A DNA stretch of 64,000 nucleotides from Gammaproteobacteria bacterium (GTDB lineage Bacteria > Pseudomonadota > Gammaproteobacteria > JAJFKG01), in the NCBI GenBank assembly GCA_965116795.1, contig OZ220716.1, positions 458,503-522,502 of the forward strand, written 5' to 3'. Made by a program: the position numbers and the translations under genes. Each line of letters begins with the position of its first letter. Position 1 is the first letter of the stretch. The notes below the pieces were generated by a model. The model worked only from the letters and a program-made list of their open reading frames with translations. It was not told the origin of the DNA and searched no databases. Positions 2,067 to 61,666 of this stretch are shown here, piece after piece.

Positions 2067-2125
2067 TATACTCAAAGCGTTTTGACTGTAGCTGCCTCGC
2101 CTATAGTCAAAACGCAAAGAGTATT
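2067..2125. repeat. Short, internally deleted ERIC-like palindrome
   Basis: TATACTCAAAGCGTTTTGACTGTAG...CTATAGTCAAAACGCAAAGAGTAT; left arm identical to the copy at 26389. Confidence 0.8.
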
Positions 2126-2206
2126 AATAGCATAGCAAATTGACACAACAAGACACATTGCATTCTCAACAACACTCGGGTATCTTCACTACTATATACT
2201 GAGTCA

Positions 2207-3661
2207 GTGCGCAACTTTGTTCGTTGTTGTGCAATAAACCAGTTTGAATTAAGGCACAATCAATCAAACAAAGTTGAATATAAATTGAGCATTATTAACC
2301 GTTTTACCCAGCAGCTTACTACTGTATTACGCTCTTTACGATCACGTCCTGTCACAACAGCACAACAGTATCCTAACGCCATTATTATTCCGCGACAGCA
2401 GCACGGTATTTCACGCAAACAAATCAACGTTAATGCATTAAAAGTATTATACCGTTTACACAATGCTGGATTTAGTGCGTATTTAGTTGGCGGCAGTGTA
2501 CGTGATTTATTATTGCAACGTGCACCAAAAGATTTCGATGTTGCCACTAATGCGCATCCTGAAGAAGTACGTCGTTTATTTACTAATTGTCGCTTGATTG
2601 GACGACGCTTTCGTTTAGCGCATGTATTTTTTGGTAGAGACATTATTGAAGTCGCTACATTTCGTGCTCACCACCACGATGCAGATAATTCACAACAAGC
2701 TTATATGCAAAATGGACAAATTATTCGTGACAATGTTTACGGTACGATCGATGATGATGCACAACGGCGTGATTTTACGATTAATGCACTGTATTACAAT
2801 ATTGCTGATTTCTCAGTTGTTGATTTCAGCACAGGGATGGCAGACATCCAGCAAGGGATTATCCGCATATTAGGTGATCCTGAACAACGTTATCGTGAAG
2901 ATCCAGTACGGATGCTACGTGCCATTCGATTTGCAGTCAAAACAGGTTTTAATATTGAAAAAAATACTAAAACTCCACTGTTTAGTTACAGTCATTTACT
3001 GAAAAATGTGCCTAAAGCTCGCTTGTTTGAAGAAATCTGTAAGCTACTGTCTTCAGGACAAAGTGTGGCAGCCTTTGCTAAATTAGAACATTATCAGATG
3101 CTAGCATACTTGCTACCACTCACTGATGAACACATCAATAATACAAAACAACAACTCGACCAAGACACTATATTATATAATCGTCGCTTTATTGAGTCCA
3201 TGCTCGCTAATACTGACGAACGTATTGCTAATGGAAGGCCAGTTACCCCTGCTTTTTTCTTAGCAGTATTATTATGGCCAACACTGCAACAACACATGCA
3301 AGCACTGCTTGATAAAAGTATCCCAACATTTACTGCACTGGATATGGCAAGCAATCAAGTACTCGACATACAATTAACTATTTTTGCTATTCAAAAACGG
3401 TTCACATTAACTGTGCGCGATATTTGGTATTTACAATACCAATTGCCTGCAAGGTATCGTGCGCCTAATCTAATAACACGATTAAAATTTCGTGCTGGTT
3501 ATGACTTTCTATTACTGCGTGTGCAAAGTGGTGAACATCAATTAGCAGAATTAGCAACGTGGTGGACAGACTACCAAGAAGCAAATCCACAAGTAAAACA
3601 CGATATGATTGCTGCATTACCCAAACCAAAACGCCGTAAACGTCGACGCCAGCGCAAATGA
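2207..3661 (+). CDS. pcnB: Poly(A) polymerase I (start codon uncertain)
   Basis: YLVGGSVRDLL, PKDFDVAT, IGRRFRLAHV, RRDFTINAL, EDPVRMLRA motifs; basic C-terminal tail; followed by folK. Confidence 0.95.
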   Translation: MRNFVRCCAINQFELRHNQSNKVEYKLSIINRFTQQLTTVLRSLRSRPVTTAQQYPNAIIIPRQQHGISRKQINVNALKVLYRLHNAGFSAYLVGGSVRDLLLQRAPKDFDVATNAHPEEVRRLFTNCRLIGRRFRLAHVFFGRDIIEVATFRAHHHDADNSQQAYMQNGQIIRDNVYGTIDDDAQRRDFTINALYYNIADFSVVDFSTGMADIQQGIIRILGDPEQRYREDPVRMLRAIRFAVKTGFNIEKNTKTPLFSYSHLLKNVPKARLFEEICKLLSSGQSVAAFAKLEHYQMLAYLLPLTDEHINNTKQQLDQDTILYNRRFIESMLANTDERIANGRPVTPAFFLAVLLWPTLQQHMQALLDKSIPTFTALDMASNQVLDIQLTIFAIQKRFTLTVRDIWYLQYQLPARYRAPNLITRLKFRAGYDFLLLRVQSGEHQLAELATWWTDYQEANPQVKHDMIAALPKPKRRKRRRQRK

Positions 3662-4119
3662 AAAATACGATTTGTTATATTGGACTAGGTAGCAACTTAG
3701 CCAACCCACCGCAGCAATTACACACTGCCATTGCTAAATTATCTGCATTACCTTATATCCAGGTTATTAACATATCACAATTTTATCAGACAACACCGGT
3801 CGGCCCACAAGATCAGCCAGATTTTGTTAATGCCGTCGTAGCAATCGACACGTCTCTTAATGCCATAGATTTACTCAGTCAACTACAACATATTGAGCAA
3901 CAACAAGGACGAATACGTCAACAACGTTGGGGACCACGCACTTTAGATTTAGATTTATTGTTATATGGCGATGCTATTATTAATACGCCACAACTCACTG
4001 TGCCACATCCTGAATTACTAAACCGACGTTTTGTGATAGAACCTTTATTAGAAATCGCACCGATGCTGACATTGCCAGATGGCGGTTACTTAAGAGATCT
4101 CGCTAGTCATTTAAATTAA
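3658..4119 (+). CDS. folK: 2-amino-4-hydroxy-6-hydroxymethyldihydropteridine pyrophosphokinase
   Basis: YIGLGSNL, QPDFVNAV, RWGPRTLDLDLL, PHP; pcnB-folK synteny. Confidence 0.95.
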   Translation: MKNTICYIGLGSNLANPPQQLHTAIAKLSALPYIQVINISQFYQTTPVGPQDQPDFVNAVVAIDTSLNAIDLLSQLQHIEQQQGRIRQQRWGPRTLDLDLLLYGDAIINTPQLTVPHPELLNRRFVIEPLLEIAPMLTLPDGGYLRDLASHLN

Positions 4120-9410: not shown

Positions 9411-9557
9411 ATATTGATACCTTTAGTGTGTTAAAAAAATTAGAGGGAATGACTACTTTTAAAGTGTATTATGATGTTGGTTATTCATTTACGTTAATTG
9501 GAGCGATATACTCTTCGTGATTTAACAGCATGCTTTGTTGACTACGTCCATTCACAA

Positions 9558-24300: not shown

Positions 24301-25187
24301 TCATCTCCTGATACGCTAGGAAAATTTGATTCTGGCAAACGACGTAAATAATCACCGTAATCATTATGAAAGTGCTGTGCAAGCGTTAATAATTGTGTAG
24401 TGTCGATATAACCCATGCGCCAAGCAACTTCTTCGGGACAACCAATCTTCAATCCTTGACGTTGTTCAAGTACTTGAATAAAACGCGACGCATCGGTTAA
24501 TGCATTATGGGTTCCTGTATCTAACCAAACAGAACCCGGCATTAGCTTGTGTACGTGTAGACGATCTTGTTTAAGGTAACATTGATTTAGATCAGTAATT
24601 TCTAATTCATTGCGTGCCGATGGGGTTAACTGTTTTGTTAATTCCACTGCGTCATGTTGATAAAAATAAAATCCTGGTACTGCATAGTGGGAAATAGGTG
24701 TTGATGGTTTTTCAATTAATTGCTTTGGTTTACCTGTTTCATCGAATTGCACAACACCGTAGCGACTCGGATCACGTACATGATAAGCAAACACGGTTGC
24801 ACCCGGATTCGTATCACGTGCTTGTTGAAGAAATTGTGCAAGATGATATCCGTAAATTAGGTTATCACCAAATGCCAATGCGGTCGCTTGCCCATCGAGA
24901 AATGTTTCTGCCAAGATTAGCGCTTGTGCAGCTCCAGCAGGCGTGGGTTGCGCGAGAAAGGTAAAACGCAATCCCCATTGACTCCCATCGCCCAGTAATC
25001 TCTCAAATAAGGGCTTGTCGATTGGTGTCGTAATGACTAAGATGTCAGTCAGTCCACTGAGCATCACCGTTGACAATGCATAGTAAATCATTGGCTTGTC
25101 ATAAACTGGTAATAAGTGTTTACTAACGCTCAATGTAGATGGATATAGGCGTGTCCCTGAACCGCCTGCAAGTATAATTGCTTTCAT
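24297..25187 (-). CDS. rfbA: Glucose-1-phosphate thymidylyltransferase
   Basis: ILAGGSGTRLYP, PVYDKPMIYY, EKP, SARNELEITD, WLDTGT. Confidence 0.95.
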   Translation of the reverse strand: MKAIILAGGSGTRLYPSTLSVSKHLLPVYDKPMIYYALSTVMLSGLTDILVITTPIDKPLFERLLGDGSQWGLRFTFLAQPTPAGAAQALILAETFLDGQATALAFGDNLIYGYHLAQFLQQARDTNPGATVFAYHVRDPSRYGVVQFDETGKPKQLIEKPSTPISHYAVPGFYFYQHDAVELTKQLTPSARNELEITDLNQCYLKQDRLHVHKLMPGSVWLDTGTHNALTDASRFIQVLEQRQGLKIGCPEEVAWRMGYIDTTQLLTLAQHFHNDYGDYLRRLPESNFPSVSGDE

Positions 25188-25203
25188 ATGGTAACCAATT
25201 GTT

Positions 25204-26346
25204 GTGACAAGATTTGCTTTTTGCCTATTTAGCTATTTTCCCTACGGTGGCTTACAAATTGACTTTAGGCAGATCCTGGCGTTGTGTCAACACGCTGGAC
25301 ATACTGTTGATATTTACACAATGGATTGGCAAGGCCCTCTTCCCGATGATCATCATATTCATTTCATTAATACATCAGCATTAACCAATCATAGCCGTGC
25401 ACAACAATTTAGCCAACAGGTTATGCATACTGTGACTAAACAACAATATGACTGTATCGTAGGATTTAATCAAATCCCAGGCATTGACGTTTATTTTGCT
25501 GCTGATGTGTGTTTTGCTTGGAAAATGGCATTGCAACATCCACATTATTACCGTTGGCTGCCACGTTATCATACTTATCTCACATTAGAACGCAAACTCT
25601 TTCAAGAAACACCACATTGTTTATGGTTAACACCAATGCAACAAGCTAATTATCAAGCCCATTACCACATTGCTGATGATAAAAATCATTTATTACTGCC
25701 TGGACTAACTTGTGATTGGCAATACCCAACTGATACACAGCATATACGTCAATGTTATCGAGACAAATTAAATCTCGCACAAGATGAAATATTATTACTG
25801 TCAGTTGGTTCACATTTCAAAACAAAAGGCATTTCGCGTAGTTTACGCGCTTATGCAGCATTGTCAGCAACATTACAGGAAAAAACACACTTCATCGTGA
25901 TTGGAAAAAGTAAAGAAAAACCATATTTAGAACTTGCTAGAAAATTACAGATCGAATCACAGATAACGTTTTTAGGGGCACAATCAGACATATTACCATT
26001 TATGCTAGCGGCTGATTTACTATTACATCCGGCATTGTATGAATCTGCAGGGTTAGTGTTGCTCGAAGCACTTACCTTGGGTTTACCGATCATCACTACA
26101 CAAGATTGTGGACATGCTTGGCATATTCAACAAGCCAATGCTGGCATGGTGCTACCCACACCGTTTTCTCAGCACGAATATAACAATGCATTATATAGTG
26201 CATTATCAACTGGCAAGTTAGCCACATGGAAAACAAATGGGTTAACGTATGCTAAACAAACTCAGTTACATGGCTTGCACGAGAAAGCTGTTAATATTAT
26301 TGAAACTGTCGCGAGTAATGGATCCCGCAGTCAAGCTGCGGGATGA
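25204..26346 (+). CDS. waaG: LPS core glucosyltransferase WaaG-like (GT4)
   Basis: AFCLFSYFPYGGLQ N-terminus, VGSHFKTKG, HPALYESAGLVLLEA; GTG start. Confidence 0.8.
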   Translation: MTRFAFCLFSYFPYGGLQIDFRQILALCQHAGHTVDIYTMDWQGPLPDDHHIHFINTSALTNHSRAQQFSQQVMHTVTKQQYDCIVGFNQIPGIDVYFAADVCFAWKMALQHPHYYRWLPRYHTYLTLERKLFQETPHCLWLTPMQQANYQAHYHIADDKNHLLLPGLTCDWQYPTDTQHIRQCYRDKLNLAQDEILLLSVGSHFKTKGISRSLRAYAALSATLQEKTHFIVIGKSKEKPYLELARKLQIESQITFLGAQSDILPFMLAADLLLHPALYESAGLVLLEALTLGLPIITTQDCGHAWHIQQANAGMVLPTPFSQHEYNNALYSALSTGKLATWKTNGLTYAKQTQLHGLHEKAVNIIETVASNGSRSQAAG

Positions 26347-26349
26347 CGG
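26319..26349. repeat. Single-hairpin CGTC-tagged REP-like unit overlapping the waaG stop codon
   Basis: TGGATCCCGCAGTCAAGCTGCGGGATGACGG; same family as 38762, 54878 and 57650. Confidence 0.85.
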
Positions 26350-26388
26350 ACCCAAGGATCGATATCTAACTTTCAAAGGCGCAATGTC

Positions 26389-26514
26389 TATACTCAAAGC
26401 GTTTTGACTGTAGGCGAGGCGGCAAGCCTTCTCGTCAAAGGAGTGTATTGAAATACATGACTTTGACGAGAAGGTGCAGCCAACAAAGCATACCGTTAAA
26501 ACACGAAGAGTATA
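26389..26514 (+). repeat. Full-length ERIC-like palindromic element (126 bp)
   Basis: TATACTC...GAGTATA ends; GGCGAGGCGGCAAG, GGAGTGTA..TACATGACT and GCAGCCAACAAAGC blocks; perfect 14-bp inner stem. Confidence 0.9.
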
Positions 26515-27420
26515 CTAATATAACGGAGGTTCGCCCCTAGGCCGCGTACGAAATCGACGATACTGCCATAAATATTGTTCCGGTTTATGACGAACTAATT
26601 TTTCAACTTCCATATTAATGCGTGTAGCATCATTGACAGCATCTCCTGTTGGAAAATGTTCAAGTGGTGGATAAAATGTTATATCATAGCCTTTATGATC
26701 ATCACGCCTAAAATAACTAGTCATTAATACGCTGGCATTTGTTATTTGTGCAAGACGCGCTGTTGTCTTAAGCGAATGTGCAGTGACCCCAAAAAAAGGA
26801 GCAAACACACCACGTCGTTTACTTGGATCGATATCAGGGCTATACCATAGTGGGATCCCTTGATTTAATTGCTTAACCAATGTGCGCATATTCTTACGTT
26901 CATGCAGTTGGTTATAATGCGGTTTACGCGCCAATTTCAGTACTGCACTTAATAATGGATGCTTAGGGTTTCGAAACATGATTGAAAAATCTAGATGCGA
27001 ACTCATCAACCTGCCAGCCATTTCCATTGATAAGAAATGTCCCCCAAGGATTAGAATATTTTTATGCTGTGCACGTAAACGCTCGAGATGTTCTAAACCG
27101 TGGATATGTGCCAATTTGGTTAACTTATTTTGTGATGCCCACCACGCTACCGGCGTCTCAAATAGTGCCATTCCCAGTGATTCAAAATACTTAACAAGCA
27201 ATTGGTGACGCTGTGCTGCTGTCCAGTCAGGGAAACACAGATCAATATTAATGTTAGCAACCCGTTTTGCGCGGGTATTAAAGCAATAGTATAGTCGGCC
27301 AACATATTTACCCAGTATCAATAATAATCGGTATGGTAGCAAACAAATCACAAACCGGATAAGTTGTAATAAACACCACAGTGGCCAATAATGAATGGGA
27401 ATTGCTGTTGTTGTTTTCAT
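26515..27420 (-). CDS. lpxL: Lipid A lauroyl/acyltransferase (LpxL/LpxP family)
   Basis: INIDLCFP, GGHFLSME, WYSPD, FAPFFG, PEQYLWQYRRFRTRP. Confidence 0.88.
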   Translation of the reverse strand: MKTTTAIPIHYWPLWCLLQLIRFVICLLPYRLLLILGKYVGRLYYCFNTRAKRVANINIDLCFPDWTAAQRHQLLVKYFESLGMALFETPVAWWASQNKLTKLAHIHGLEHLERLRAQHKNILILGGHFLSMEMAGRLMSSHLDFSIMFRNPKHPLLSAVLKLARKPHYNQLHERKNMRTLVKQLNQGIPLWYSPDIDPSKRRGVFAPFFGVTAHSLKTTARLAQITNASVLMTSYFRRDDHKGYDITFYPPLEHFPTGDAVNDATRINMEVEKLVRHKPEQYLWQYRRFRTRPRGEPPLY

Positions 27421-27530
27421 CCGATTAACATATCACACACAGCGAATTTATTCTAATCAATGTTATCAATTGATACTACCCCTACACTTACTGCAAAACT
27501 TCGGTATAATTTAATAGTAATAATCATTGA

Positions 27531-28550: not shown

Positions 28551-28562
28551 TAGGCGATCAAG

Positions 28563-32680: not shown

Positions 32681-32681
<1 letters not shown>

Positions 32682-34412: not shown

Positions 34413-34596
34413 CTATAGCTTTTCAGAAAAATAAATTGGATTGTATCATTTCATCTTACGCTCACCTAGCCGCGTTGCTCATTCAAAAAATGCTCAAAAT
34501 AGCCCAACTATTCTTCTGCTTTTTTTCAATCGAAACCCGACTATCTAAACTCAATCTGAATGCTAAAATCTAATTTATTTTTCTGAAAAGCTATAG
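34413..34596. mobile_element. MITE-like element, 184 bp, 30-bp terminal inverted repeats
   Basis: CTATAGCTTTTCAGAAAAATAAATTGGATT / AATCTAATTTATTTTTCTGAAAAGCTATAG (1 mismatch); no convincing coding capacity. Confidence 0.75.
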
Positions 34597-34705
34597 CAGA
34601 TAAAATAAAATCGATAATAAATCATAACTTGTATTTAACCTATCATTCGGCTAGCATGAGTCACTTATTTTCCAGTATCTGTCAATAAAAAAACAGGGGT
34701 TCTTC

Positions 34706-36214: not shown

Positions 36215-36225
36215 AAATTAATATT

Positions 36226-36585
36226 GTGAGTAATACACTATTTATAGAAAATCTGGTCATTCATACAATTATTGGTGTACACGATTGGGAACAGCAAATT
36301 AAACAGCCCATCGAATTAGATATCAAGCTGCAATTAAACGATAATAAAGCAGCTGTTACAGATAATTTAGTTGATACATTGGATTACGATAAGATGTGTT
36401 TTCAATTAGTCAATTTAGTCAGTGAATTACGCTGTAAGCTTATTGAAACACTGGCTGATCACATCATGAAACACTTACTATCATATAAATTAATCTCATC
36501 TGCCAAATTAACATTACGCAAACCAAGTGCAGTCAAACAAGCACGTTGTGTTGGTATTACTATCGAGAGTGGAGAACAGCAATAA
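36226..36585 (+). CDS. folB: Dihydroneopterin aldolase
   Basis: IIGVHDWEQ..KQ, D.L.DTLDY, LIETLA, KP.A. Confidence 0.93.
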   Translation: MSNTLFIENLVIHTIIGVHDWEQQIKQPIELDIKLQLNDNKAAVTDNLVDTLDYDKMCFQLVNLVSELRCKLIETLADHIMKHLLSYKLISSAKLTLRKPSAVKQARCVGITIESGEQQ

Positions 36586-37064
36586 TGCCACGCATCTATA
36601 TTGGAGTTGGCAGTAATATTAAACCAAAACACCATATTCACACCGCGTTTAATTTTTTTAAATCCACATTTAACAAGCCGATATTTTCTTCTGTTTACTG
36701 TTCACATGCTATTGGATTTGATGGTGCAGATTTTTACAATGCCGTTGTTGGAATTGACAGTGACATAGATATTAAACAACTATTAACACAATTAGCACAG
36801 CAAGAAAGGGCACAAGGTGTTGTTACAAAATTATCTTTTTGTAACCGTACCATTGATCTGGATCTACTATTGTATGGTGATGCCGTCTACAATGATAATC
36901 AAATTGAATTGCCACACAGCGACACTATTAAATATCCATTTGTATTGGGACCACTTGCTGAGATCGCAGGTGATGAATATCACCCAATACTCGGTTTAAC
37001 TTATGGAACTCTATGGCAACATCATCGATATAAACATCATATACTCGGCGTAATTGAATTGTAG
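36585..37064 (+). CDS. folK: Second HPPK (FolK paralogue)
   Basis: YIGVGSNI, SSVY, GFDG.DFYN, RTIDLDLLLYGD, FVLGPLAEIA; ATG overlaps the folB stop. Confidence 0.85.
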   Translation: MPRIYIGVGSNIKPKHHIHTAFNFFKSTFNKPIFSSVYCSHAIGFDGADFYNAVVGIDSDIDIKQLLTQLAQQERAQGVVTKLSFCNRTIDLDLLLYGDAVYNDNQIELPHSDTIKYPFVLGPLAEIAGDEYHPILGLTYGTLWQHHRYKHHILGVIEL

Positions 37065-37168
37065 GCTTTGTTGGCTGCACGGTTTTGCCACAGTCATGTA
37101 TGTCAATATACACTCCTGTGACAAAATCACTTGCCGCCTCGCCTACAATCCAATTGCTTGAGTCTATA
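37040..37168 (-). repeat. Full-length divergent ERIC-like element overlapping the folK2 3' end
   Basis: GCTTTGTTGGCTGCA, AGTCATGTA..TACACTCC and CTTGCCGCCTCGCC blocks in reverse orientation; TATA ends. Confidence 0.88.
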
Positions 37169-37237
37169 CTTCGTTGTAACTAAAATGAATTGTCACAAAG
37201 CCAACAAAGACCTGAAATTTAAAACACGAAGAGTATA
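37165..37237 (+). repeat. Degenerate ERIC-like copy abutting the previous one at a shared TATA
   Basis: GCCAACAAAG...AAAACACGAAGAGTATA; terminal segment matches the right end of the 26389 copy. Confidence 0.7.
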
Positions 37238-37267
37238 TTAATAAATAATTAACACCGGAGGTATGAA

Positions 37268-38734
37268 ATGCGATCTAACTTTGTCAACTATAGTATCGCC
37301 ATCGCAGTTACAGCCATTGTGTCCATTGTATGCTTTTGGCTAATACTACCTAAGCAAACCATGCCAGTTAATTTAATGCTGCCCATATCATTGCCTCAGA
37401 CAATTCATAGTTTTTTACCACAGCATGCTGACTTAGATAAACCATTATTATCAATTGCACGGCAAGATAAATACAAAAAAGATTTTTTAACTCGTTTTTA
37501 CAGTCCTTGGAACAAAAAAGATAGCAATACTACTGTATCAGCTACCGCAGATCATCAACATACATCTACCATTCTTGAAATAGAACAGCATTTAGCACAA
37601 CATTATCAAAATAAAACAACTTACGATAGTCATTACCAACCACATTCTTCACAATGGCTAGACAATATTGCGAAAAATATGGAGTTAGATACATTTCCCA
37701 ATGTAACGCAACATAGCCGCGGTATTATGATAAACAACGCTGCATTGCGTGAATTACCGACTAGTGAATCTAGTTATAATAACATCTTACAACCCGGGGA
37801 AGGTTATCCGTTTGATGATCTGCAAGAATCTGCCGTGTATTTAGGATCACCTATACACATTATTCATCAAACCAAAGATAAAAAATGGTTATTGATTAAG
37901 GCAGCAGGCTTATTGGGATGGGTTGAACACAATAATGTTAGTTATGTTGATCAAACCTTTATTGATAATTGGAAACGTAAACCGCTCGCTACACTAACGA
38001 CTTATCAGCCTATTACTAATACCACTCAACATCAATCTATGGCGATATACCCAGGGACTATATTACCAATGATTATAGAGCCCACAACTAATCAAATTAT
38101 TACTGTACTGTATCCAAAAAAAGCAACATCGCACCAAACTAGTATTGTCAGTAGAGCCGCTTCATCTGATTGGCAACCCTGGCCAATTTCACCTACTTTA
38201 CGTCACTTTGTGAATTTAGTTGAGACATTGCTAGGAATACCGTACGGATGGGGTGATTTGCATTTTCATCCGGACTGTTCTGGTTTGTTACGTAGCCTGT
38301 ACAATACTGTCGGGATCTGGTTACCACGTAATTCCAGTATTCAAGCACATTATGCTGGGAAGCTTTATTCATTACCGTTAACTGAATACCCAACAATCAC
38401 ACGTGAAACCATTCTTAACGGTAAAAATAACCAAATTGGACGCCTAACTCCATTCTTAACCTTCATCAGTTTTGGTAAAAAACAAAATCATATCAGCCAT
38501 ATCGCAATATACGTTGGACGCGATAACACTAATCATCCGATTATTTTCCATTCAATTTGGGGATTGGGTCTGCTGAATAAACAGCAAAAACAAATTGGGC
38601 GTATGATAGTGGGTCAATCAATCTTATCACGATTAGATTTAGGAGTTGATGTAGTCATACCACAACACCCACAATGGCATATTGATAACTTATTAGAAAA
38701 ACCAGAATTCAATATTACTAAACTGAATGGCTAG
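37268..38734 (+). CDS. NlpC/P60 (C40) peptidase with SH3 domains
   Basis: N-terminal TM, F.SPW, LRELPT, GEGYPFD.LQES, PYGWG...DCSG, LPRNS..Q, HIAIYVG. Confidence 0.85.
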   Translation: MRSNFVNYSIAIAVTAIVSIVCFWLILPKQTMPVNLMLPISLPQTIHSFLPQHADLDKPLLSIARQDKYKKDFLTRFYSPWNKKDSNTTVSATADHQHTSTILEIEQHLAQHYQNKTTYDSHYQPHSSQWLDNIAKNMELDTFPNVTQHSRGIMINNAALRELPTSESSYNNILQPGEGYPFDDLQESAVYLGSPIHIIHQTKDKKWLLIKAAGLLGWVEHNNVSYVDQTFIDNWKRKPLATLTTYQPITNTTQHQSMAIYPGTILPMIIEPTTNQIITVLYPKKATSHQTSIVSRAASSDWQPWPISPTLRHFVNLVETLLGIPYGWGDLHFHPDCSGLLRSLYNTVGIWLPRNSSIQAHYAGKLYSLPLTEYPTITRETILNGKNNQIGRLTPFLTFISFGKKQNHISHIAIYVGRDNTNHPIIFHSIWGLGLLNKQQKQIGRMIVGQSILSRLDLGVDVVIPQHPQWHIDNLLEKPEFNITKLNG

Positions 38735-38761
38735 TTTTAGTCGTAACTTAAGACTCAGCGA

Positions 38762-38794
38762 CCGTCATCCCGCGGCTTGACCGCGGGATGACGG
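38762..38794. repeat. CGTC-tagged REP-like hairpin between convergent genes (possible terminator role)
   Basis: CCGTCATCCCGCGG-CTTGA-CCGCGGGATGACGG perfect palindrome. Confidence 0.88.
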
Positions 38795-38814
38795 CCGGAG
38801 GGAAGAGGAGTATA

Positions 38815-41112
38815 TTATTTACCTGCACGTATTAACCCACCTAAGCCTGCTGCCTCTAAGTGTTGCTCGAGAAAACGTCGAATAATATGTGGCTCTTCCA
38901 TACAAATGGCTTCGCGTAAATAATCACGTGCCGTTCGTAAGCTAAAGTTACGGATCACCCAACGAATACGCAATAAGCTACTCGAGTTCATACTGAATGC
39001 ATCATAACCCATACCTAATAGCAAAACAGCAGACACTGGATCACCTGCCATTTCACCACAAATACTAACCTGCTTACCTTCGGCATGTACCTCATCAACA
39101 ATATGCATTAACGCAATTAACACCGATGGATGCAAGGTATCATACAAGCGTGCTACTCGCATGTTATTGCGATCAACTGCTAATAAATATTGCGCCAAGT
39201 CATTACTACCCACAGAAATAAAATCAACTCGACGAATTAATAAACGTGTTTGATAAACAGCAGCTGGGACTTCAATCATAGCACCAACCAATGGCATATC
39301 AATCATATGTCCTTCTTCATTGACTTCACGATATGTCTGACGTAGTAAACGTAGTGCTTCATCTAATTCAGCAATGTGACTCACCATTGGAAAAATAATG
39401 CGTAAATTATTCAATCCTTCACTTGCTTTTAACATGGCACGCAGTTGTACTCGAAATACTTCTGGGTGATCTAATGTGACACGAATGCCACGCCAACCTA
39501 ATGCAGGATTATCTTCATTAATTGGAAAATACGGTAATGATTTATCACCTCCTACATCTAACGTGCGCATGATCACTGGACGTGGTGCAAACGCAGCAAG
39601 TACCTGTCGATAAATCGCTGACTGTTCTGCTTCTGTGGGAAAATTTTCACGGACTAAAAATGGGATCTCAGTACGATATAATCCAACACCTTCAGCCCCT
39701 GCTGTTAGTGATAAACCAGCATCAGCGGCAATTCCAATATTGACACATAATGCCACACAATGCCCATCAGGTGTTTCAGCAGGTAGATCACGCAATGTTT
39801 GTAAATCGGCATTTAGTTCTTGTTCCTCTTTTAATAAATTTTGATATTGTTGTAACAATGCCATTGATGGAGCGACATAAGCAATGCCATAGTAGCCATC
39901 AATAATGACTTGTTGTCGTGCAAGCTGAGCAACGTTAACACCACTGATCCCCATCACAACAGGCACTCCAATCGCGCGCGCTAAAATAGCTACATGCGAA
40001 TTATCCGCACCTTTTAATGAAATAATACCTTTTAGCAATCCTTCCGGCACTTCAGCTAATGCAGCAGCTGTAACTTCTTCGCCGATTAGAATAGTTTGTT
40101 TTGGATAATCAATCTTAGTATGTTGTTGTTTCTGCAAATGTCCTAATATACGTTGAGCAAGATCTTGAATGTCAGTTGCACGCCCACGCAAATACTCATC
40201 ATCCATGCTATCAAATCGTTGTAAATGTTGTTTGACTACTTGACGTAATGCACCTTGTGCCCACTGACCAGAGCGAATAACCGCAACAACATCTTTACTG
40301 AAACTAACACTGGTTAATATACCAATATATACATCAAAAATAGCTAACTCTTCTGCAGCAATGCTGCTACTGAGTCGTTGCTTTAATTGATTGATTTCAG
40401 ATTGTGTTGCAAGTAATGCTGTATTGAATAAGTCAATTTCTCTATTGATGTGATCAGCTGTAATTGCTTTATCCGGTACTACATTCAAATCAGCAGGTGG
40501 ATACACTAGCACACTGGTACCAATAGCAACACCAGGGATTCGAGTGACCCCTTTTAATGGGCGATCACGCTTTTTACGCTGTTGATGGCGACGTTGACGA
40601 GAAACGTCTTTCGCTAATTCTACCAGTGCATCTTGACTGTTAATCTGCGAAATAGGCTCAGCAAATTGTGCTGCCAACGTCACTAGAAATGCTTCTTCTG
40701 TTTGATCATAACGACGTTTTTCTTCTTGTTGTACTACCAATACGCCAATTACATTTCCATTATATGTAATAGGTACCGCCAAATAAGCACAATAATGTTG
40801 TTCGTCAATGCCATCAACATGAATAAAACTAGGGTGTATGTTGGCATCCTCTATATTAAGCGGCTCACCACGCTTAGCAACTGCACCAATTAATCCTGTA
40901 CCATAATCAATACAGACAGTTGCATCATCTGCAATTACTAACCCACTGCTGACCATTAACAAAAAGCCACCACGTTCATCATCTTTTAAATATAACGTGC
41001 ACGCTTGTGTTTCTAATGTTTCTCGGATCCGTTGCACGATCACTGTCAATGCTGCACCTAATGTATCAGCAGCATTGAATTCATTTAAAATGCGACGTTG
41101 GATCTTTAACAT
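38815..41112 (-). CDS. ptsP: Enzyme I-Ntr (GAF domain + PEP-protein phosphotransferase)
   Basis: N-terminal GAF domain, NSHVAILARA, GVGLYRTE, RTLDVGGDK, LGWRGIR, SVGSNDL, ICGEMAGD. Confidence 0.95.
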   Translation of the reverse strand: MLKIQRRILNEFNAADTLGAALTVIVQRIRETLETQACTLYLKDDERGGFLLMVSSGLVIADDATVCIDYGTGLIGAVAKRGEPLNIEDANIHPSFIHVDGIDEQHYCAYLAVPITYNGNVIGVLVVQQEEKRRYDQTEEAFLVTLAAQFAEPISQINSQDALVELAKDVSRQRRHQQRKKRDRPLKGVTRIPGVAIGTSVLVYPPADLNVVPDKAITADHINREIDLFNTALLATQSEINQLKQRLSSSIAAEELAIFDVYIGILTSVSFSKDVVAVIRSGQWAQGALRQVVKQHLQRFDSMDDEYLRGRATDIQDLAQRILGHLQKQQHTKIDYPKQTILIGEEVTAAALAEVPEGLLKGIISLKGADNSHVAILARAIGVPVVMGISGVNVAQLARQQVIIDGYYGIAYVAPSMALLQQYQNLLKEEQELNADLQTLRDLPAETPDGHCVALCVNIGIAADAGLSLTAGAEGVGLYRTEIPFLVRENFPTEAEQSAIYRQVLAAFAPRPVIMRTLDVGGDKSLPYFPINEDNPALGWRGIRVTLDHPEVFRVQLRAMLKASEGLNNLRIIFPMVSHIAELDEALRLLRQTYREVNEEGHMIDMPLVGAMIEVPAAVYQTRLLIRRVDFISVGSNDLAQYLLAVDRNNMRVARLYDTLHPSVLIALMHIVDEVHAEGKQVSICGEMAGDPVSAVLLLGMGYDAFSMNSSSLLRIRWVIRNFSLRTARDYLREAICMEEPHIIRRFLEQHLEAAGLGGLIRAGK

Positions 41113-41173
41113 ATAAAAACCTTTAAAAACTTTTTATGCTTATTTAAAGCATCAAACTATTAGTATCACTAAC

Positions 41174-41300
41174 TATACTCAAAGCGTTTTAAATTTATGC
41201 TTTGTTGGCTGCGCCTTCTCACAAAAGTCATGTATTTCAATACACTCCTTTTGATTCGAAGACTTGCCGCCTCGCCTAAATTCAAAACGCTTTGAGTATA
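41174..41300 (-). repeat. Full-length ERIC-like element (127 bp) between rppH and ptsP
   Basis: TATACTCAAAGCGTTTT...AAAACGCTTTGAGTATA perfect termini; conserved internal blocks. Confidence 0.92.
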
Positions 41301-41305
41301 TTCAA

Positions 41306-41794
41306 TCATAAAGTATTACGCGATGCAGCAAAATCACATAACACTTTCTGATACACTTGTCGTTTAAAGAAAATAACATGTTGTACTGGGTGCCAATAAT
41401 CTACCCAGCACCAACTATCAAATTCTGGCTCATCACTATGGTTAAGGTTAATAGCACTATCTTGATTGGTGAGATATAACAAAAACCATTTTTGTTTTTG
41501 TCCGATGCACACTGGCGTGACATGCTGACGGATAAATTGCTGGGGCAAACGATAATGATACCAATCTGTTGCCTCAGCTACTAACCTAACATCATTAGCT
41601 TGCAAACCAACTTCTTCAGCTAACTCACGGTACATCGCGTCTACAGGTTGTTCACCTGCTTGCAATCCTCCTTGCGGAAATTGCCATGCCGTCTTACCAA
41701 CGCGTCGTCCCCAAAATACCTTACCTGCAGCATTGAGCAACACAATACCCACATTGGCACGAAACCCTTGCGAATCGATCAATGCTGCCTCCAT
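41306..41794 (-). CDS. rppH: RNA pyrophosphohydrolase
   Basis: IDSQGFRANVGI, WQFPQGG, RELAEEVGL Nudix box, CIGQKQKWF, PEFD.W, FKR.VY. Confidence 0.96.
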   Translation of the reverse strand: MEAALIDSQGFRANVGIVLLNAAGKVFWGRRVGKTAWQFPQGGLQAGEQPVDAMYRELAEEVGLQANDVRLVAEATDWYHYRLPQQFIRQHVTPVCIGQKQKWFLLYLTNQDSAINLNHSDEPEFDSWCWVDYWHPVQHVIFFKRQVYQKVLCDFAASRNTL

Positions 41795-41952
41795 TATTCT
41801 TTAGAAAAACAGCTATCATTCTTTCAAAAAATGAGGAACTGGGCAAGGTTAATTCCTTATTCAGTAATACTAAATTCAACTAGGGATTTATAATCACATC
41901 CGGTATAATTCTACAGCTAGTAGGTTTATCGGCATCAAAACAGAGTAGGTTT

Positions 41953-42029
41953 GTAATTACTCAGCCAGTTTTCACGTTACTGAAAGACGTCAGCCTTGGC
42001 GCTTTCCTTAACAAGCCTGAGTAGTTAAC
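41953..42029. mobile_element. Small MITE-like remnant with possible 7-bp target duplication
   Basis: TAATTACTCAG / CTGAGTAGTTA inverted ends, flanked by TAGGTTT at 41946-41952 and 42030-42036. Confidence 0.5.
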
Positions 42030-42056
42030 TAGGTTTAATCAATTGGAGGATCACCT

Positions 42057-42377
42057 ATGTTACACACAGCATATACAATTACTGTGCATTTCACTGCAAA
42101 GTCAGGTCAAGAAGACACATTAGCGGCCGCGTTAATGGCATTGGTTGCACCCACACGTGCTGAACCCGGTTGTTTACTGTATACCCTACATCGCAGTGAT
42201 AATAATCCTGCTGATTTTTTGTTTTATGAAGCATGGGTTGATCAGGCAGCGCACGAAGCCCATCGAAAAACCACACACATGCAACAATGGCGTAAGCAGC
42301 GTGATAAATTAGTTGCAAAAGCAACATCGCAATCCTGGCAAGCAGTTAAAAATTGTAATGTAGCCGCTACGGTATAG
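42057..42377 (+). CDS. ABM-family (putative quinol monooxygenase) protein
   Basis: AK.GQE, TRAEPGCL.Y.LH, F.FYE.W, H..T.H; GGAGG RBS. Confidence 0.85.
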   Translation: MLHTAYTITVHFTAKSGQEDTLAAALMALVAPTRAEPGCLLYTLHRSDNNPADFLFYEAWVDQAAHEAHRKTTHMQQWRKQRDKLVAKATSQSWQAVKNCNVAATV

Positions 42378-42402
42378 CATACAATAAATTTTGGGAGTGG
42401 TG

Positions 42403-43146
42403 ATGACAATTCAAGTGATTATTAACGGTGCTAATGGACGTATGGGTAAACAGGCTACAGCGTATTTACCCACCCAATCTGATATTCATGTGATAGCCAC
42501 CGCGGGTAAAAGCGATAACTTATCTCAGCTTATTAAACAACACCAAGCTGATGTGGTCGTTGACCTGACAACTGCTGAAGTCGCATTTGATAATGCTGCC
42601 ACTATTATTGAATCAGGGGCACGCCCAGTGATTGGTACCACTGGGTTTAGTGATGATCAAATTGCAACACTGCAAAGCCGTTGCCAACAACAAAAACGTG
42701 GTGGTGTGATTGCACCTAATTTCTCAATCAGTGCAATTTTGATGATGCAATTTGCTGCAAAAGCCGTAGCCTATTTGCCTGCTGTTGAAATCGTTGAATC
42801 GCATCACGATCAAAAAAAAGATGCACCATCTGGTACCGCAGTCAAAACGGCCAAAATGATTAGCGATGCTAGAGAAGCAGCACAATTAACTGCACCAGCC
42901 GATCCAACTGTTATTGAACAATATCCTGGTTGTCGCGGCGGTGACTGTTATTCAATTCCAACACATAGCGTGCGCTTGCCGGGCTTTTTGGCTACTCAAG
43001 AAGTTATTTTTGGCAATATAGGTGAAACCTTATCGATTCGTCATAATAGCATCAGTCGCGACGCATTTATGCCAGGCATTGCTTTGGCCTGTCGCCGTGT
43101 GATGACATTATCAGAATTGGTATATGGGTTAGAAAAATTATTATAA
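42403..43146 (+). CDS. dapB: 4-hydroxy-tetrahydrodipicolinate reductase
   Basis: GANGRMG, VIGTTG, APNFS, E.HHDQKKDAPSGTA, HSVRLPG. Confidence 0.95.
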   Translation: MTIQVIINGANGRMGKQATAYLPTQSDIHVIATAGKSDNLSQLIKQHQADVVVDLTTAEVAFDNAATIIESGARPVIGTTGFSDDQIATLQSRCQQQKRGGVIAPNFSISAILMMQFAAKAVAYLPAVEIVESHHDQKKDAPSGTAVKTAKMISDAREAAQLTAPADPTVIEQYPGCRGGDCYSIPTHSVRLPGFLATQEVIFGNIGETLSIRHNSISRDAFMPGIALACRRVMTLSELVYGLEKLL

Positions 43147-43185
43147 TGCTACTCTAATTGTGGTGATATTATTTAGCAACAAAGT

Positions 43186-44664
43186 TTATGCTTTTTCAGT
43201 ACCAACTGGTTTAGCTTGTTCGCCATTCCATACCAGATCCAATTGACGTGCTGCTTTCACATCGTCTAAGCGTCGTACTGGACACGTATGAGGTGCCTTT
43301 AAAATAATATCAGGATTAGTTTTTGCTTCTTGTTGAATAGCTAGCATTGCTGCAACAAATTGGTCAATATCTTGTTTGCTTTCAGTTTCTGTTGGTTCGA
43401 TCAATAAACATTCTGGCACCAGTAATGGGAAATACGTTGTTGGTGCATGACAGCCATAATCTAACAATCGTTTGGCTACATCCATTGCACTAATACCATA
43501 CGCTTTTACCCAATTTTTTAAGGTAATAATAAATTCATGGCTAGCACGACGTTTAGGATAAGCCAATTCAAACCCGGCTTGTTGCAAACGTGTCATCAAA
43601 TAATTTGCATTCAATGTAGCAAATTCAGCTACACGCACCATACCTTCACGCCCCAGAATGCGACAATAAATATAAGCACGTAATAAAATACTGGCATTAC
43701 CCATAAATGCTGATAACCGACCAATGCTATCCGGACAATTATGTTGATTAAGCAAACAGTATTGATTATCTTGCTTATCAACAATTGGGATCGGTAAATA
43801 AGGTTTTAATTTATCATTACATGCCACTGGCCCAGAGCCAGGTCCACCACCACCATGAGGTGTCGCAAATGTTTTGTGTAAATTTAAATGCATGACATCA
43901 AAACCCATATCACCTGGGCGTACTTTACCTAAGATTGCATTTAAGTTGGCACCGTCGTAATACAACAAGCCACCTGCTGCATGCACTTTGTTAGCAATCA
44001 CAGCAATTTGCCGTTCAAACACACCTAAAGTAGACGGATTCGTTAACATAATGCCTGCTGTTTGTGGTCCTAATGCTGCCTCCAATGCAACCAAATCAAC
44101 ATCACCATCTTTATCCGTTGGGATCTCGCGCACTGTATAACCACACATGACTGCCGATGCTGGATTGGTACCGTGTGCGGCATCCGGCACTAGAATTTCA
44201 CAACGCGCATGATCACCTCTGGCTTGATGATAAGCGCGAATCATGGAAACACCAGCGAATTCACCTTGAGCACCTGCCATTGGCGCTAATGAAATACCAC
44301 TCATGCCAGTGACATCTTTTAATATATCTTGTAATTCATACAAGCATTGCAGAAAGCCTTGGCTTTCGGTAAATGGTGCTAATGGATGGCGACGTAACCA
44401 ATCTGATAATGATGCAAGCTTATGTACACCACGCGGATTATATTTCATTGTACATGAACCTAATGGATACATATGTGTATCAATCGAAAAATTGTGCTGC
44501 GACAGTTGTGTATAATGTCGCACAACTTGCATTTCTGATACTTCAGGTAATTGTGCTGTTGATTGACGTAACAATTGATCTGGGATTGCCGTTTCCGTCG
44601 ATGAAATACGCGGTGATTGCATATGTGCTGCACGGTTTGGAGCAGATTTCTCAAAAATAAGCAT
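43186..44664 (-). CDS. gcvPB: Glycine dehydrogenase subunit 2
   Basis: [58 protein letters not shown]. Confidence 0.96.
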
Positions 44665-51018: not shown

Positions 51019-51170
51019 TATACTCTTCGCATTTTAAATTTATGCTTTGTTGGCTGCGCTGACCCCGGATCAAGTCCGGGGCAAGTCTTTATACAAAAGT
51101 CATGTATTTCATACACTCCTTTTGCTCGACAGCTTGCCGCCTCGCCTAAATTCAAAACGCTTTGAGTATA
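51019..51170 (-). repeat. ERIC-like element (152 bp) carrying a ~26-bp nested hairpin insertion
   Basis: Near-identical to the 41174 copy plus TGACCCCGGATCAAGTCCGGGGCAAG at 51060-51085. Confidence 0.9.
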
Positions 51171-51268
51171 TACTGAGAGAAATACAAATTACAATATCGT
51201 TGTACTAATACAAATGACTAAAAGTCAGTCATGCCAGCCCGAACTAAAATTAAAATGCGAAGAGTATA
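51169..51268 (+). repeat. Degenerate ERIC-like copy abutting the previous one
   Basis: TATACTG left end; right end TAAAATGCGAAGAGTATA is the reverse complement of the 51019 end. Confidence 0.6.
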
Positions 51269-53891: not shown

Positions 53892-54713
53892 ATGCCTAGC
53901 AAAGATAACCAACCAACTATTCCCGCTGATATGATACCTGAACAATCTGTGGCAAGTCCGGCTAAGCCAGAGGATATTATTGATGCTGCAACGAATGATA
54001 ATTCAAAGGAAGCACCTCCAAAAGATCCTGATGAGCCAAAAAAACCCGACCTTCTTTCAGATAGCGGTGGGCAGCCACACTTGGCTGACTTTAGAAAGCA
54101 ATTAAATGATTTCTTTAACAAACAACTAAATGATGAACATGATGAATTAATGGAAAAATTCCGTTCAAATCAAAAAAATAATAAAAAACACAGCACAGAG
54201 ACACAAAATAACGAAAATAATACAGATGATGGTGATAACCAACAAGATACAGTAGATGAGATAGAGACATCTGATAACCTTCCTACCCCAACACCAGGAT
54301 CTGGTCATAGCGAAGCACTTGATGGTGAGAACGAAAATAACACAGATTATATTGATGGTGATAACCAACAAGATACAGTAGATGAGATAGAGACACTTGA
54401 TAACCTTCCTACCCCAACGCCAGAATCTAGTCAAAGCAAAGCATTTGATGGTGAAATTGGTGATACTCGTGCTCGTCAACAAGAAGCAACAGCTGCTAGC
54501 AATGAAAAAAAGGCAGAGGCAATGGATAGTGCCATGCCTTCGATGGAGACACCACCACAATCCATGGCCGGTCTCAATACGCAAGCTGCTAATGGCATGG
54601 GATCAGAAAACTTAGACCAAGCTACTCAAAGTAGTAGTACTGCTGGAAATTCAGGAAAACTAGGAGAGCTAGGAGAAATAGCTGAAGAAGCTGGCCCATT
54701 ATTGCTACTATAA
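53892..54713 (+). CDS. Hypothetical acidic, low-complexity protein with an internal ~40-aa duplication
   Basis: 273-aa ORF with AAGGGG RBS and promoter candidates; D/E/N/P/T-rich; no recognisable domain. Confidence 0.75.
   Translation: MPSKDNQPTIPADMIPEQSVASPAKPEDIIDAATNDNSKEAPPKDPDEPKKPDLLSDSGGQPHLADFRKQLNDFFNKQLNDEHDELMEKFRSNQKNNKKHSTETQNNENNTDDGDNQQDTVDEIETSDNLPTPTPGSGHSEALDGENENNTDYIDGDNQQDTVDEIETLDNLPTPTPESSQSKAFDGEIGDTRARQQEATAASNEKKAEAMDSAMPSMETPPQSMAGLNTQAANGMGSENLDQATQSSSTAGNSGKLGELGEIAEEAGPLLLL
54210..54455 (+). repeat. In-frame tandem duplication (120 bp + 126 bp)
   Basis: Units start at 54210 and 54330 (AACGAAAATAA...GATGGTGA); the second has a 6-bp TATATT insertion. Confidence 0.92.
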
Positions 54714-54877: not shown

Positions 54878-54994
54878 CGTCATCCCGCGGCTTGACCGCG
54901 GGATCCAGAGAATCGTGATATTAATTTGATATTCACCGTATTTTTATCTCTGGGTTTCATGCACTGGATCCCGCGGTCAAGCCGCGGGATGACG
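54878..54994. repeat. Dimeric CGTC-tagged REP-like element (RPE-4/WPE-like)
   Basis: CGTCATCCCGCGGCTTGACCGCGGGATCCAG - AT-rich spacer - CTGGATCCCGCGGTCAAGCCGCGGGATGACG. Confidence 0.9.
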
Positions 54995-57649: not shown

Positions 57650-57781
57650 TGTACCCGTCATCCCGCGACTTGATCGCGGGATCCAGAGAATAGAGCAGAT
57701 GACTTTAATATTTATACTGTTTTTCTAATACTGAGTTTTGTTCCCTGGATCCCGCGATCAAGTCGCGGGATGACGGGTACA
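57650..57781. repeat. Dimeric CGTC-tagged REP-like element with perfect 37-bp inverted arms
   Basis: TGTACCCGTCATCCCGCGACTTGATCGCGGGATCCAG and its exact reverse complement; spacer alignable with that of the 54878 copy. Confidence 0.92.
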
Positions 57782-60335: not shown

Positions 60336-61525
60336 GTTGATTGTCCTTTTTCAACAAGCACAGCAATCGCTGGCAATAACTTACCTTCTAAATATTCTAA
60401 AAAAGCCCCACCACCCGTAGAAATATAAGACATTGCCGATTGTAATCCTGCCATTTCAATCGCTGCTAATGTATCGCCACCGCCTACCATTGAGAATGCA
60501 GAAGATGATGCTACTGCTTGTGCAATGGCTAATGTGCCTGTGGCAAAGTGTGCACACTCAAACACACCAACAGGACCATTCCATACAATGGTACCTGCAT
60601 TAGCAATGCTTGTTTCATATTGTTTAATTGTTTGTGGGCCAATATCTACGATCATGTCAGGTTCCACTACAGCATCGACCATCTTTGTCGTTGGAATTGC
60701 AGTATCAGTAATCTCAGTGGCCACTACAACATCGCTGGGTAACAACAATGTTGTGCCATGTTGTTCAGCTTGGATCAATAAGCGTTTAGCATCAGCCAAC
60801 AATTCTGTTTCACACAGTGAACAACCAACCGGCTTACCACTTGCAGCTAAAAACGTATTAGCCATACCACCACCAATGATCAATTGATCAACTTTCGTGA
60901 TTAAATGTGCTAGCACTTGTAATTTGCTAGATACTTTCGCACCACCAACAATCGCTAATAATGGGTGTGCCGGATCTTGTAATGCGTTGGCTAAGGCTTC
61001 TAATTCACTTGTTAATAATGGGCCTGCACACGCAATCGGAGCAAACTTAGCTACCCCACACGTTGATGCATGCGCACGGTGCACTGTTGCAAACGCATCC
61101 ATTATAAATACATCACATAATGCCGCCATGCGTTGTGATAACGCAACATCATTTGCTTTTTCACCCACATTGAAACGTACATTTTCTAATAAAAGAATAT
61201 GATCATTGGTTCTAGGTAATTGTTCTGGGTGAATGGCCCAATCGCGGTATAATTCCACTGGGCATTGCATTAATTCACTTAAACGTTGCGCCACCGGTTG
61301 CAATGACAATGTTTCATCAAATACCCCTTCTTGTGGACGTCCTAAATGGGATAGAATCATTACTTGTGCAGGTTGCTGAGATAAAATCTGTTTAATCCCT
61401 GGGATCGCTGCTTGCAAACGCAAGTCACTTTTTACCTTACCATCACGGATCGGCACGTTAAAATCTTCTCGAATTAAGACACGCTTATCACGCAAATTGA
61501 TATCAGCTAATTTTAAAATCGACAT
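60332..61525 (-). CDS. pgk: Phosphoglycerate kinase
   Basis: RVLIREDFNVP, SHLGRP, LENVRF, HRAHAS, GGAKVS.K, WNGPVGVFE, STGGGAFLE. Confidence 0.97.
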   Translation of the reverse strand: MSILKLADINLRDKRVLIREDFNVPIRDGKVKSDLRLQAAIPGIKQILSQQPAQVMILSHLGRPQEGVFDETLSLQPVAQRLSELMQCPVELYRDWAIHPEQLPRTNDHILLLENVRFNVGEKANDVALSQRMAALCDVFIMDAFATVHRAHASTCGVAKFAPIACAGPLLTSELEALANALQDPAHPLLAIVGGAKVSSKLQVLAHLITKVDQLIIGGGMANTFLAASGKPVGCSLCETELLADAKRLLIQAEQHGTTLLLPSDVVVATEITDTAIPTTKMVDAVVEPDMIVDIGPQTIKQYETSIANAGTIVWNGPVGVFECAHFATGTLAIAQAVASSSAFSMVGGGDTLAAIEMAGLQSAMSYISTGGGAFLEYLEGKLLPAIAVLVEKGQST

Positions 61526-61600
61526 ATGTTTCCTTGCTATGCAAACTACAAAAATGATCAGCAGCGTAGAAGATTAGCATAAAACGCCACTTTCGTCAGC

Positions 61601-61666
61601 TATACTCTTCGCGATTTGAATTTAGGCGCAGCCAACAAAGCATAAATTTAAATCGCGAAGAGTATA
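61601..61666 (+). repeat. Internally deleted ERIC-like element (66 bp)
   Basis: TATACTCTTCGCGATTTGAATTTAGGC-GCAGCCAACAAAGCATAAATTTAAATCGCGAAGAGTATA. Confidence 0.85.

Follow-up and report, generated by a model that had tools for sequence, protein, structure and literature searches.

What is a palindromic repeat of the ERIC (enterobacterial repetitive intergenic consensus) type doing in a chromosome that does not look enterobacterial, what moved it there, and what keeps its fold? These questions are raised by a stretch of 64,000 nucleotides (hereafter the window) from a gammaproteobacterial genome (GenBank assembly GCA_965116795.1, contig OZ220716.1, positions 458,503 to 522,502), in which a preliminary description had listed about eight copies of such a repeat. 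Known since 1990-91, ERIC repeats serve for strain typing. Judged by its sequence and predicted fold, the repeat is a member of the ERIC (MITEEc1) family, that is, a mini-transposon without genes. Taken as a whole, we consider it probable that the repeat is a MITE (miniature inverted-repeat transposable element) of the ERIC family, mobilised by a transposase from the IS630 family of insertion sequences (IS), and that its fold is kept through copying between its arms together with selection and recognition by the host. The source genome, G000, comprises 2.45 Mb (contig C1), and G001 is the only other genome of the same genus. Element strands are quoted on the GA strand, which carries the purine loop.

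Membership of the ERIC family

A covariance model (R1) was built from 47 sequences, 35 from G000 and 12 from G001, none of them enteric. In Escherichia coli K-12 it recovered 18 loci, all full-length (E-values 8e-21 to 7e-14, 70-96 bits), including all 15 loci found using the E. coli rpsB-tsf copy of ERIC. These loci agree with the 127-nt ERIC consensus printed in PMC2759123, and their number can be set beside the 19-21 ERIC copies given for E. coli in PMC2267715. The fold and the loops of an E. coli ERIC copy (L022) are those of the G000 repeat. A blastn search with a copy of the repeat gave no match in E. coli genomes: the ends and stems of the G000 element have diverged from ERIC past the range of blastn, and the ends fit another IS630 clade. 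The kinship with ERIC proposed in the preliminary description, and an alignment to ERIC beyond chance, are thus borne out by the 18 full-length K-12 matches, whereas the oddity implied by the word "distant" falls away, the family being already filed under IS630.

The general features point the same way. According to the descriptions of ERIC, IRU (intergenic repeat unit) and RU-1 in PMC2229807, PMC2759123 and PMC10969869, the repeats of enterobacteria and vibrios are likewise 126-128 bp long with TA at both ends, and likewise form one long, imperfect hairpin whose loops are the same, lie between genes and occur in tens of copies. A profile built on four window copies gave 80 non-overlapping matches in G000, where 52 copies are full-length, so that further genomic copies exist in number. 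The size and TA termini first described hold for these: 36 of the 52 measure 126-129 bp, 14 carry inserts and two are 111-112 bp long. With a length of 127 bp the repeat carries no transposase gene. No full copy lies within an open reading frame (ORF) of at least 100 aa, and a few overlap gene ends; the stretches at 1.1-1.5 Mb and 2.0-2.3 Mb hold none of the 52. Three kinds of ends were distinguished: type A, the majority; type B, about a quarter of 35 aligned G000 copies; and nearly E. coli-type ERIC ends, which occur in a sole copy (C1:532649-532777, L147). A blast search gave 27 matches in G001 and, at the same sensitivity, none in the other 29 relatives.

It is in the host that the repeat is unlike ERIC. 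Among 30 relatives, one belongs to the same genus, one to the same family and the rest only to the same class, which agrees with the non-enteric host supposed at the outset; this listing does not seem to fit Enterobacterales, and G000 would lie outside both Enterobacterales and Vibrionales. The host range of ERIC is given as Enterobacteriaceae or Vibrionaceae (PMC10969869), to neither of which G000 appears to belong. Because R1 also matches 19 of 150 other genomes of the class, sampled one per family, we regard the published range as too narrow and not as defining. Matches were also found in 13 of 30 genomes that carry IS630 relatives.

An IS630 element with matching ends

The mover was expected to be encoded outside the window, possibly by a longer element with the same termini. 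Such an element exists. The one DDE_3 match in G000, which scores above the NCBIfam cut-off for IS630, belongs to an element of 1200 bp with 26-bp ends at C1:1315253-1316452. Its ends agree with the type-A consensus ends in 24 of 26 and 23 of 26 positions. A full type-A copy (window 26389-26514, plus strand; TA + 122 bp + TA, 126 bp) has its left terminal repeat, 26 bp including TA, at 26389-26414 and its right one at 26489-26514. When the genome was searched for sites with up to five mismatches from the IS630 end, 77 of 77 other sites were ends of the repeat, and 30 shuffled ends gave 0 or 1 site.

The likeness follows the relationships of the transposases. Eighteen IS630 elements with definable ends were taken from sets of 53 and 12 loci, many of which had no clear pair of ends or were redundant. 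Type-A ends match those of seven elements whose transposases are 55-100% identical in 19-24 of 26 positions, those of six elements at 41-52% identity in 12-17, and those of five IS630 elements from enterobacterial and vibrio plasmids in 11-13. For the E. coli ERIC consensus ends the order is reversed, with 17-20 matches to the five plasmid elements and 10-15 to the seven closest to G000; individual E. coli copies match the plasmid ends less well (about 13-16). In the five elements (L129, L130, L133, L135 and L138), from plasmids of Raoultella, Salmonella, Klebsiella and Vibrio, the left and right ends differ from each other; they resemble the right and left ends, respectively, of E. coli ERIC. 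They are candidate movers of ERIC. Since the 26-bp ends match, the repeat itself was likely cut and pasted by an IS630 transposase of the type found in G000.

A link between ERIC and IS630 is not new in kind, having been in print since 2018. PMC6267812 gives ERIC as filed under MITEEc1 and relates MITEPlu5 of Photorhabdus to IS630 elements of the CCC type, and PMC11602168 writes MITEEc1_IS630; a review of 2007, as far as its text on this point goes, knew such an IS630 link only for RUP (PMC2229807). MITEPlu5 (123 bp plus the TA duplication) is related to ERIC and tied to ISPlu3, ISPlu8 and ISPlu19 by terminal likeness, and the ends of the G000 IS630 also have CCC near the terminus, as in that group. 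The text on MITEPlu5 stresses the terminal CCC, whereas the match in G000 is internal to one genome and extends over 24 of 26 bases. Comparable, by their description, are RUP and BOX of Streptococcus pneumoniae (IS630-Spn1, ISSpn2; PMC2229807, PMC3049150): small TA-targeting repeats for which mobility in trans was proposed from the likeness of ends.

Several observations weigh against mobilisation by this element. An insert of about 93 bp, akin to another family of TA-ended repeats, breaks up its ORF, so that G000 holds a single, interrupted IS630 copy and no intact cognate transposase; the repeat family is therefore probably dormant in this genome. Intact IS630 relatives, 80% identical, were found in G031. 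The G000 element also sits in a chromosome region without repeat copies. A DDE_3 search gave no match in G001 or in three of four other draft genomes with IS630-type ends, and the IS630 of the fourth has unrelated ends. Type-B left ends fit the IS630 poorly (11 of 26, ungapped). Finally, IS630-type ends may enclose other cores or none, and no transposition was observed.

The repeat-free stretches of C1 (about 1.05-1.56 Mb and 2.0-2.34 Mb) contain many multi-kilobase duplications that are 70-89% identical. These stretches, which also hold the IS630, suggest repeated integrative elements.

TA duplication and insertion sites

Target duplication could be followed in a sister family. G031 has at least 116 related repeats, and at 30 loci of a host repeat in this genome, 22 were empty, six filled and two unclassed; insertion occurred at two TA sites, and the TA was duplicated each time. 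Within the G000 family, contigs of sequencing runs X2-X5 (window 24500-44400) revealed no empty site, and alignments of orthologous regions of G001, which are too diverged, gave no empty site or duplication; both points count against the reading. Of 17 insertion sites of G001 tried, six could be placed in G000, and five of these six have no element there; at the one common site the copy is decayed in G000. A nested arrangement was seen in G031 (L208:1340-1600), where an ERIC-type element is inserted in an arm of another and a third adjoins.

Fold and conserved core

The repeat is a single long imperfect stem-loop, as ERIC is. For three full window copies, RNA folding z-scores lie between -7.5 and -11.0 whichever strand is folded, and the GA strand folds better in all 52 full copies when treated as RNA and in 50 when treated as DNA. 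In the copy at 26389 the left side of a conserved basal internal loop (RGGC) occupies 26416-26420 and faces AAC at 26482-26484. The apical module (26440-26461, plus strand) consists of the tandem GA/GA, a G-U pair, a 4-bp stem ending in TA/TA, and the loop. The apical motif occurs four times in the window and in none of 100 shuffles, and the tandem GA/GA under the apical hairpin, noticed from the start, is present in 49 of the 52 copies.

The core was compared among 36 family representatives. Sixteen of 19 stem pairs show double changes, neighbouring pairs swapping freely, while 34 representatives keep the G-U below the tandem GA and 35 the G-C within the basal loop. A constraint at the level of a single-strand fold, as had been suggested, thus finds support in the G-U pair. 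Because G-U becomes an A-C mismatch on the other strand, neither copying between arms nor a double-stranded palindromic operator would explain its conservation. Of 41 held-out core matches, 36 have the G-U and 38 have Watson-Crick bases at the two variable pairs, where four different dinucleotides occur; these matches are biased in favour of our reading, as the model rewards G-U.

Hairpins of the REP (repetitive extragenic palindrome) type are inserted at fixed places beside the loops in 14 of the 52 copies. Six copies share one insert, so insert-bearing lineages must still have spread.

Known motifs offered no better identity. A kink-turn, by definition a three-base bulge beside tandem G-A/A-G pairs, does not fit: there is no bulge in the G000 family or E. 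coli ERIC, and at most one or two bases elsewhere. The LexA box, the CsrA site and helix 8 of the signal recognition particle (SRP), also compared by their consensus features, were set aside once alignments A1 and A2 had been inspected.

Covariation and copying between arms

Covariation was assessed against shuffles, against slid partners and by re-pairing of columns on a tree. Alignment A1 has 45 pairs, of which 29 have changed on both sides, and 93% of its cells pair, a level reached by none of 500 shuffles; slid partners give 30-48% pairing. On the tree, 32 double changes on the same branch keep pairing in the core, as against 1.8 (at most 7) for re-paired columns. Significant covariation, on which the first proposal of a structural constraint depended, is therefore present.

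Not all of it needs to reflect selection. Compensated double changes number 37-43 on tip branches and 16 on internal ones, and the loops are at times overwritten: the terminal loop has been made perfect in seven of 52 copies, the tandem GA in one and the basal loop in none. Because many compensated changes are private and loops are overwritten by the other arm, covariation within a genome is not by itself proof of selection on RNA. The covariation is strong, and in part it is mechanical, arising through arm-to-arm copying.

On tip branches, single-side changes in the core are strand-symmetric, with 37 G-U against 31-32 A-C. On internal branches of the tree of 47 sequences, all pairs taken together, G-U outnumbers A-C by 21 to 2. 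With 64 sequences and two trees, the internal ratios in the core were 19:7 (p 0.11) and 18:4 (p 0.024), and over all pairs the internal excess of G-U was not significant (p 0.55 and 0.09), which tells against a fold selected on one strand. The internal excess of G-U over A-C is accordingly suggestive only.

A core common to different ends and phyla

The matches to R1 showed the same middle within many types of ends, and IS630-type ends around other middles or none. A model of the core only, for which only 23-55 candidates were scored in each genome, was found in 42 of 150 Pseudomonadota genomes, 28 of them outside the class, and in 16 of 81 genomes of Bacteroidota (the phylum of G060); none of 81 Planctomycetota genomes (the phylum of G050) had it. 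G000 itself has ten further cores (C1:283810, 297158, 1026020, 1715799, 1748710, 59478, 170728, 1612300, 982039 and 1723900) with at least four other types of ends. In G149 a shortened core is flanked by ends matching those of an IS5 element that this genome also carries. This was the only one of five genomes in which a search for IS partners (PF01609) of other end types succeeded; the search brought up no partner in the other four, and in G079 it gave only further short elements bearing the ends in question. Searched with the core, plasmids yielded no more than short matches; of the 23 records concerned, one was from Aeromonas and the others were enterobacterial.

In families with IS630, IS5 and other ends alike, the loops and the G-U are thus conserved on one strand, as far as alignment and predicted pairing tell. 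The core is not required, because IS630-type ends surround other cores or none and because short coreless copies occur in G000. Other structured middles within IS630-type ends were seen at L189-L195, L201, L203-L207, L243 and L256, and in several of them a tandem GA again lies a few pairs beneath the tip. We found no description of a core common to MITE families in the literature searched, which did not extend to subscription journals, ISfinder or the primary ERIC papers.

Mechanism and alternatives

The chemistry of IS630/Tc1 elements is established: the transposase binds the ends, cuts the element out and integrates it at TA. We propose that the transposase of the G000 clade, or a close relative, acting in trans, would bind the 26-bp ends of the repeat and cut and paste it into TA. 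Positions 8-10 of the ends are at liberty to differ and make up a purine-rich loop. Of the steps proposed, transposition by an IS630-type enzyme in trans is the one we hold with the greatest confidence, and we regard it as very probable. Copies then degenerate, shed their middle between the short repeats that lie at its base, come to adjoin one another at TA ends and gain REP-like hairpins. It is probable, with rather less confidence than for the first step, that the stems co-vary partly by arm-to-arm copying and partly by selection for pairing. The fold of the GA strand would be under letter-specific selection independent of the transposase family. Whether the loops, tandem GA and G-U are kept because a host factor other than the transposase recognises the folded strand, thereby aiding spread or persistence, we judge to be an evenly balanced matter. 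We favour an effect of such a factor on spread or persistence over a service to neighbouring genes or avoidance of palindromes, because the copies show no tie to the direction of transcription or to particular loci.

The strongest competitor keeps the same IS630 mobility but has the core retained as a transcribed hairpin that serves the stability or processing of host mRNA, as was proposed for Yersinia. Co-transcribed ERICs with orientation-dependent effects of RNase E are described there (PMC2229807, PMC10969869), and G-U pairs and tandem GA are features of the RNA type. Rfam gave no match at gathering threshold in the window or at the cores of 40 other loci, and at the level of E-values only chance matches in window 26300-26600. 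Two sub-threshold matches nevertheless favour an RNA: V_AS5 of Vibrio (RF02818) on the GA strand (E 5.6e-5, 34 of 96 bits) and sX9 of Xanthomonas (RF02228) on the other strand (E 0.002, 28 of 44 bits). V_AS5 aligns to the whole element and sX9 to half of the core, and they are filed as antisense RNA and small RNA, respectively, not as repeats. In addition, 15 of the 52 copies touch or overlap a gene end, and 11 of these 15 are read on the non-GA strand (p 0.12). Against such a role, transcription would read through the GA strand in 28 copies and through the other in 21 (p 0.39), a count that rests on crude gene calls and weighs the less in favour of our own reading for it. The sites are moreover lineage-specific (five of six), the one common site has decayed in G000, and decay on tip branches is strand-symmetric. 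A host-RNA function of this kind therefore appears unlikely, though it is the best placed of the alternatives. A scan for promoters and terminators in window 26200-26700 found none within the copy, and two promoter-like sites against 1.4 expected.

Beside these results it may be noted that the best sub-threshold match to V_AS5 is the copy with nearly E. coli-type ends (C1:532649-532777), and that V_AS5 looks like the transcript of a Vibrio ERIC. The alignment of sX9 (L353:1501-1550), for which a 75-nt northern signal is reported (PMC3300014), begins inside the apical stem and may mark a start or cut site.

According to a second alternative nothing is recognised: arm copying makes the covariation, loops survive only in so far as long perfect palindromes, being unstable, are purged, and the core persists by descent. 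The direct signs of arm copying described above fit this well, as does the length of the longest perfect stem, which is at most 9 bp in 37 of 52 copies and 17 bp or more in only five. In 36 of 52 copies (p 0.008) the better-folding GA strand also goes with the lagging strand and so keeps clear of the lagging-strand template, a bias not seen in E. coli (9:9 at the 18 K-12 loci, relative to origin and terminus). If purging were the cause, however, any mismatch would serve, yet identical loop letters and the same G-U are met again in two phyla despite turnover of the stems, and we regard this explanation as quite improbable.

That the repeat moves as a single strand or via RNA, by an HUH/RAYT-type enzyme (RAYT, REP-associated tyrosine transposase) or a reverse transcriptase, the likeness of its ends to IS630 being historical, would suit its strand-specific fold, the REP-like hairpins inserted in 14 of 52 copies and the seven Y1 transposase matches in G000, but a DDE enzyme is in keeping with both the TA duplication and the way the ends follow IS630 clades, which leaves the single-strand or RNA route with very little probability. 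The Y1 transposases were rejected as movers: the four best matches are 570-bp IS200-like repeats, identical to one another, whose ends are unrelated, as are those of two of the three others read. The REP/RAYT system, a palindrome of 20-40 bp with terminal GTAG or CGTC and a RAYT neighbour, was likewise set aside, since size and ends differ and the Y1 matches are IS200-like.

Preferring, then, an IS630-mobilised MITE with a host-recognised fold, we can go one step further, tentatively and at slightly less than even odds. The middle of ERIC may be a module that folds strand-specifically (a basal RGGC/AAC loop, the tandem GA above G-U and a TA/TA tip), independent of the transposase and repeatedly captured by IS630, IS5 and other MITEs in two phyla or more. 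The reason would be that a conserved host protein binds the folded strand and lets the 127-bp element be excised, copied or tolerated. ERIC would then be one instance, with IS630 elements on enterobacterial and vibrio plasmids as its movers.

Copies and other repeats in the window

All eight starts listed in the preliminary description (2067, 26389, 37040, 37165, 41174, 51019, 51169 and 61601) have a terminus of the family. Full length, given there as about 126-129 bp, is found at four of them; the other four are short or chimeric. Besides the copy at 26389, the full ones are a type-B copy of 127 bp with variant ends and the same core (37040-37166, minus strand), which has its TA in common with the next element; a type-A copy of 127 bp (41174-41300, minus), whose terminal 3x3 loop has been overwritten to a perfect match with the other arm; and a type-A copy of 152 bp (51019-51170, minus) with a hairpin insert of about 25 bp (hairpin at 51063-51081).

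None of the remaining four has a core. Those at 37165 and 51169 differ from the family in their left part: the first (37165-37237, plus) is a 73-bp chimera in which the left end of another short TA-ended element is joined to a type-A right end, and the second (51169-51268, plus) is a single-copy element of 100 bp in tandem, with a type-A-like right end. The copy at 2067-2126 (minus) has an internal deletion, measures about 60 bp and keeps both ends. That at 61601-61666 (plus, 66 bp) has a left end that is a copy of its right end; a HipA-family kinase gene (61676-62902, minus) directly adjoins it. A decayed right end at 9507-9555 (minus), absent from the earlier list, has a counterpart at the orthologous site in G001.

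Three sequence blocks had been called essentially invariant. They are exact in the four full window copies and variable genome-wide, where on both strands of G000 the first block has 29 exact occurrences, the TACATGACT block 67 and the last block 26; GGC/GCC pairs within the conserved blocks covary. The two stem pairs quoted for the copies at 26389 and 37040 are correct as written.

Type-B copies (e.g. C1 312207, 2343019 and 1971836) are often preceded by a TA-ended element of about 66 bp, or part of one, with the TA in common, and the element at window 37165 carries an end of this element. A second TA-ended MITE family is represented at window 34415-34594 (180 bp, 38-nt terminal arms) and has at least ten full copies in G000 with 88-100% identity. 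The insert that interrupts the IS630 gene is a shorter relative of this family.

REP-like hairpins of the CGTC type occur at window 26319-26348, 38763-38798, 54878-54994 and 57650-57781, several as inverted doublets, and at least 14 exact 30-mers were found genome-wide. They resemble the inserts in 14 of 52 ERIC-like copies. CGTC-type REPs are likewise palindromic and intergenic (PMC3733652), and REP-like hairpins occur here both in the window and as inserts. As described there, REPs measure 20-40 bp with a terminal tetranucleotide, whereas the G000 element has 127 bp, terminal repeats and TA ends. Of the Y1 matches read in G000, none looked like a RAYT gene. The window further contains a short AAC/AGC tandem tract (32338-32431) at the 5' end of a cluster of ORFs of 339-567 aa, and a two-copy repeat of 126 bp (54227-54454) inside the ORF at 53892-54713.

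Implications

In the papers seen, the mover of ERIC had been inferred from terminal likeness only, and its conserved fold had no accepted cause. The near-exact match of ends between element and transposase and the naming of candidate movers for ERIC make mobilisation directly testable. The part that arm copying plays in producing covariation inside palindromic repeats is a caution for its use. The close match and the common core make two old questions testable, and the core points to a hitherto unrecognised fold, one that the host may recognise, inside many bacterial repeats.

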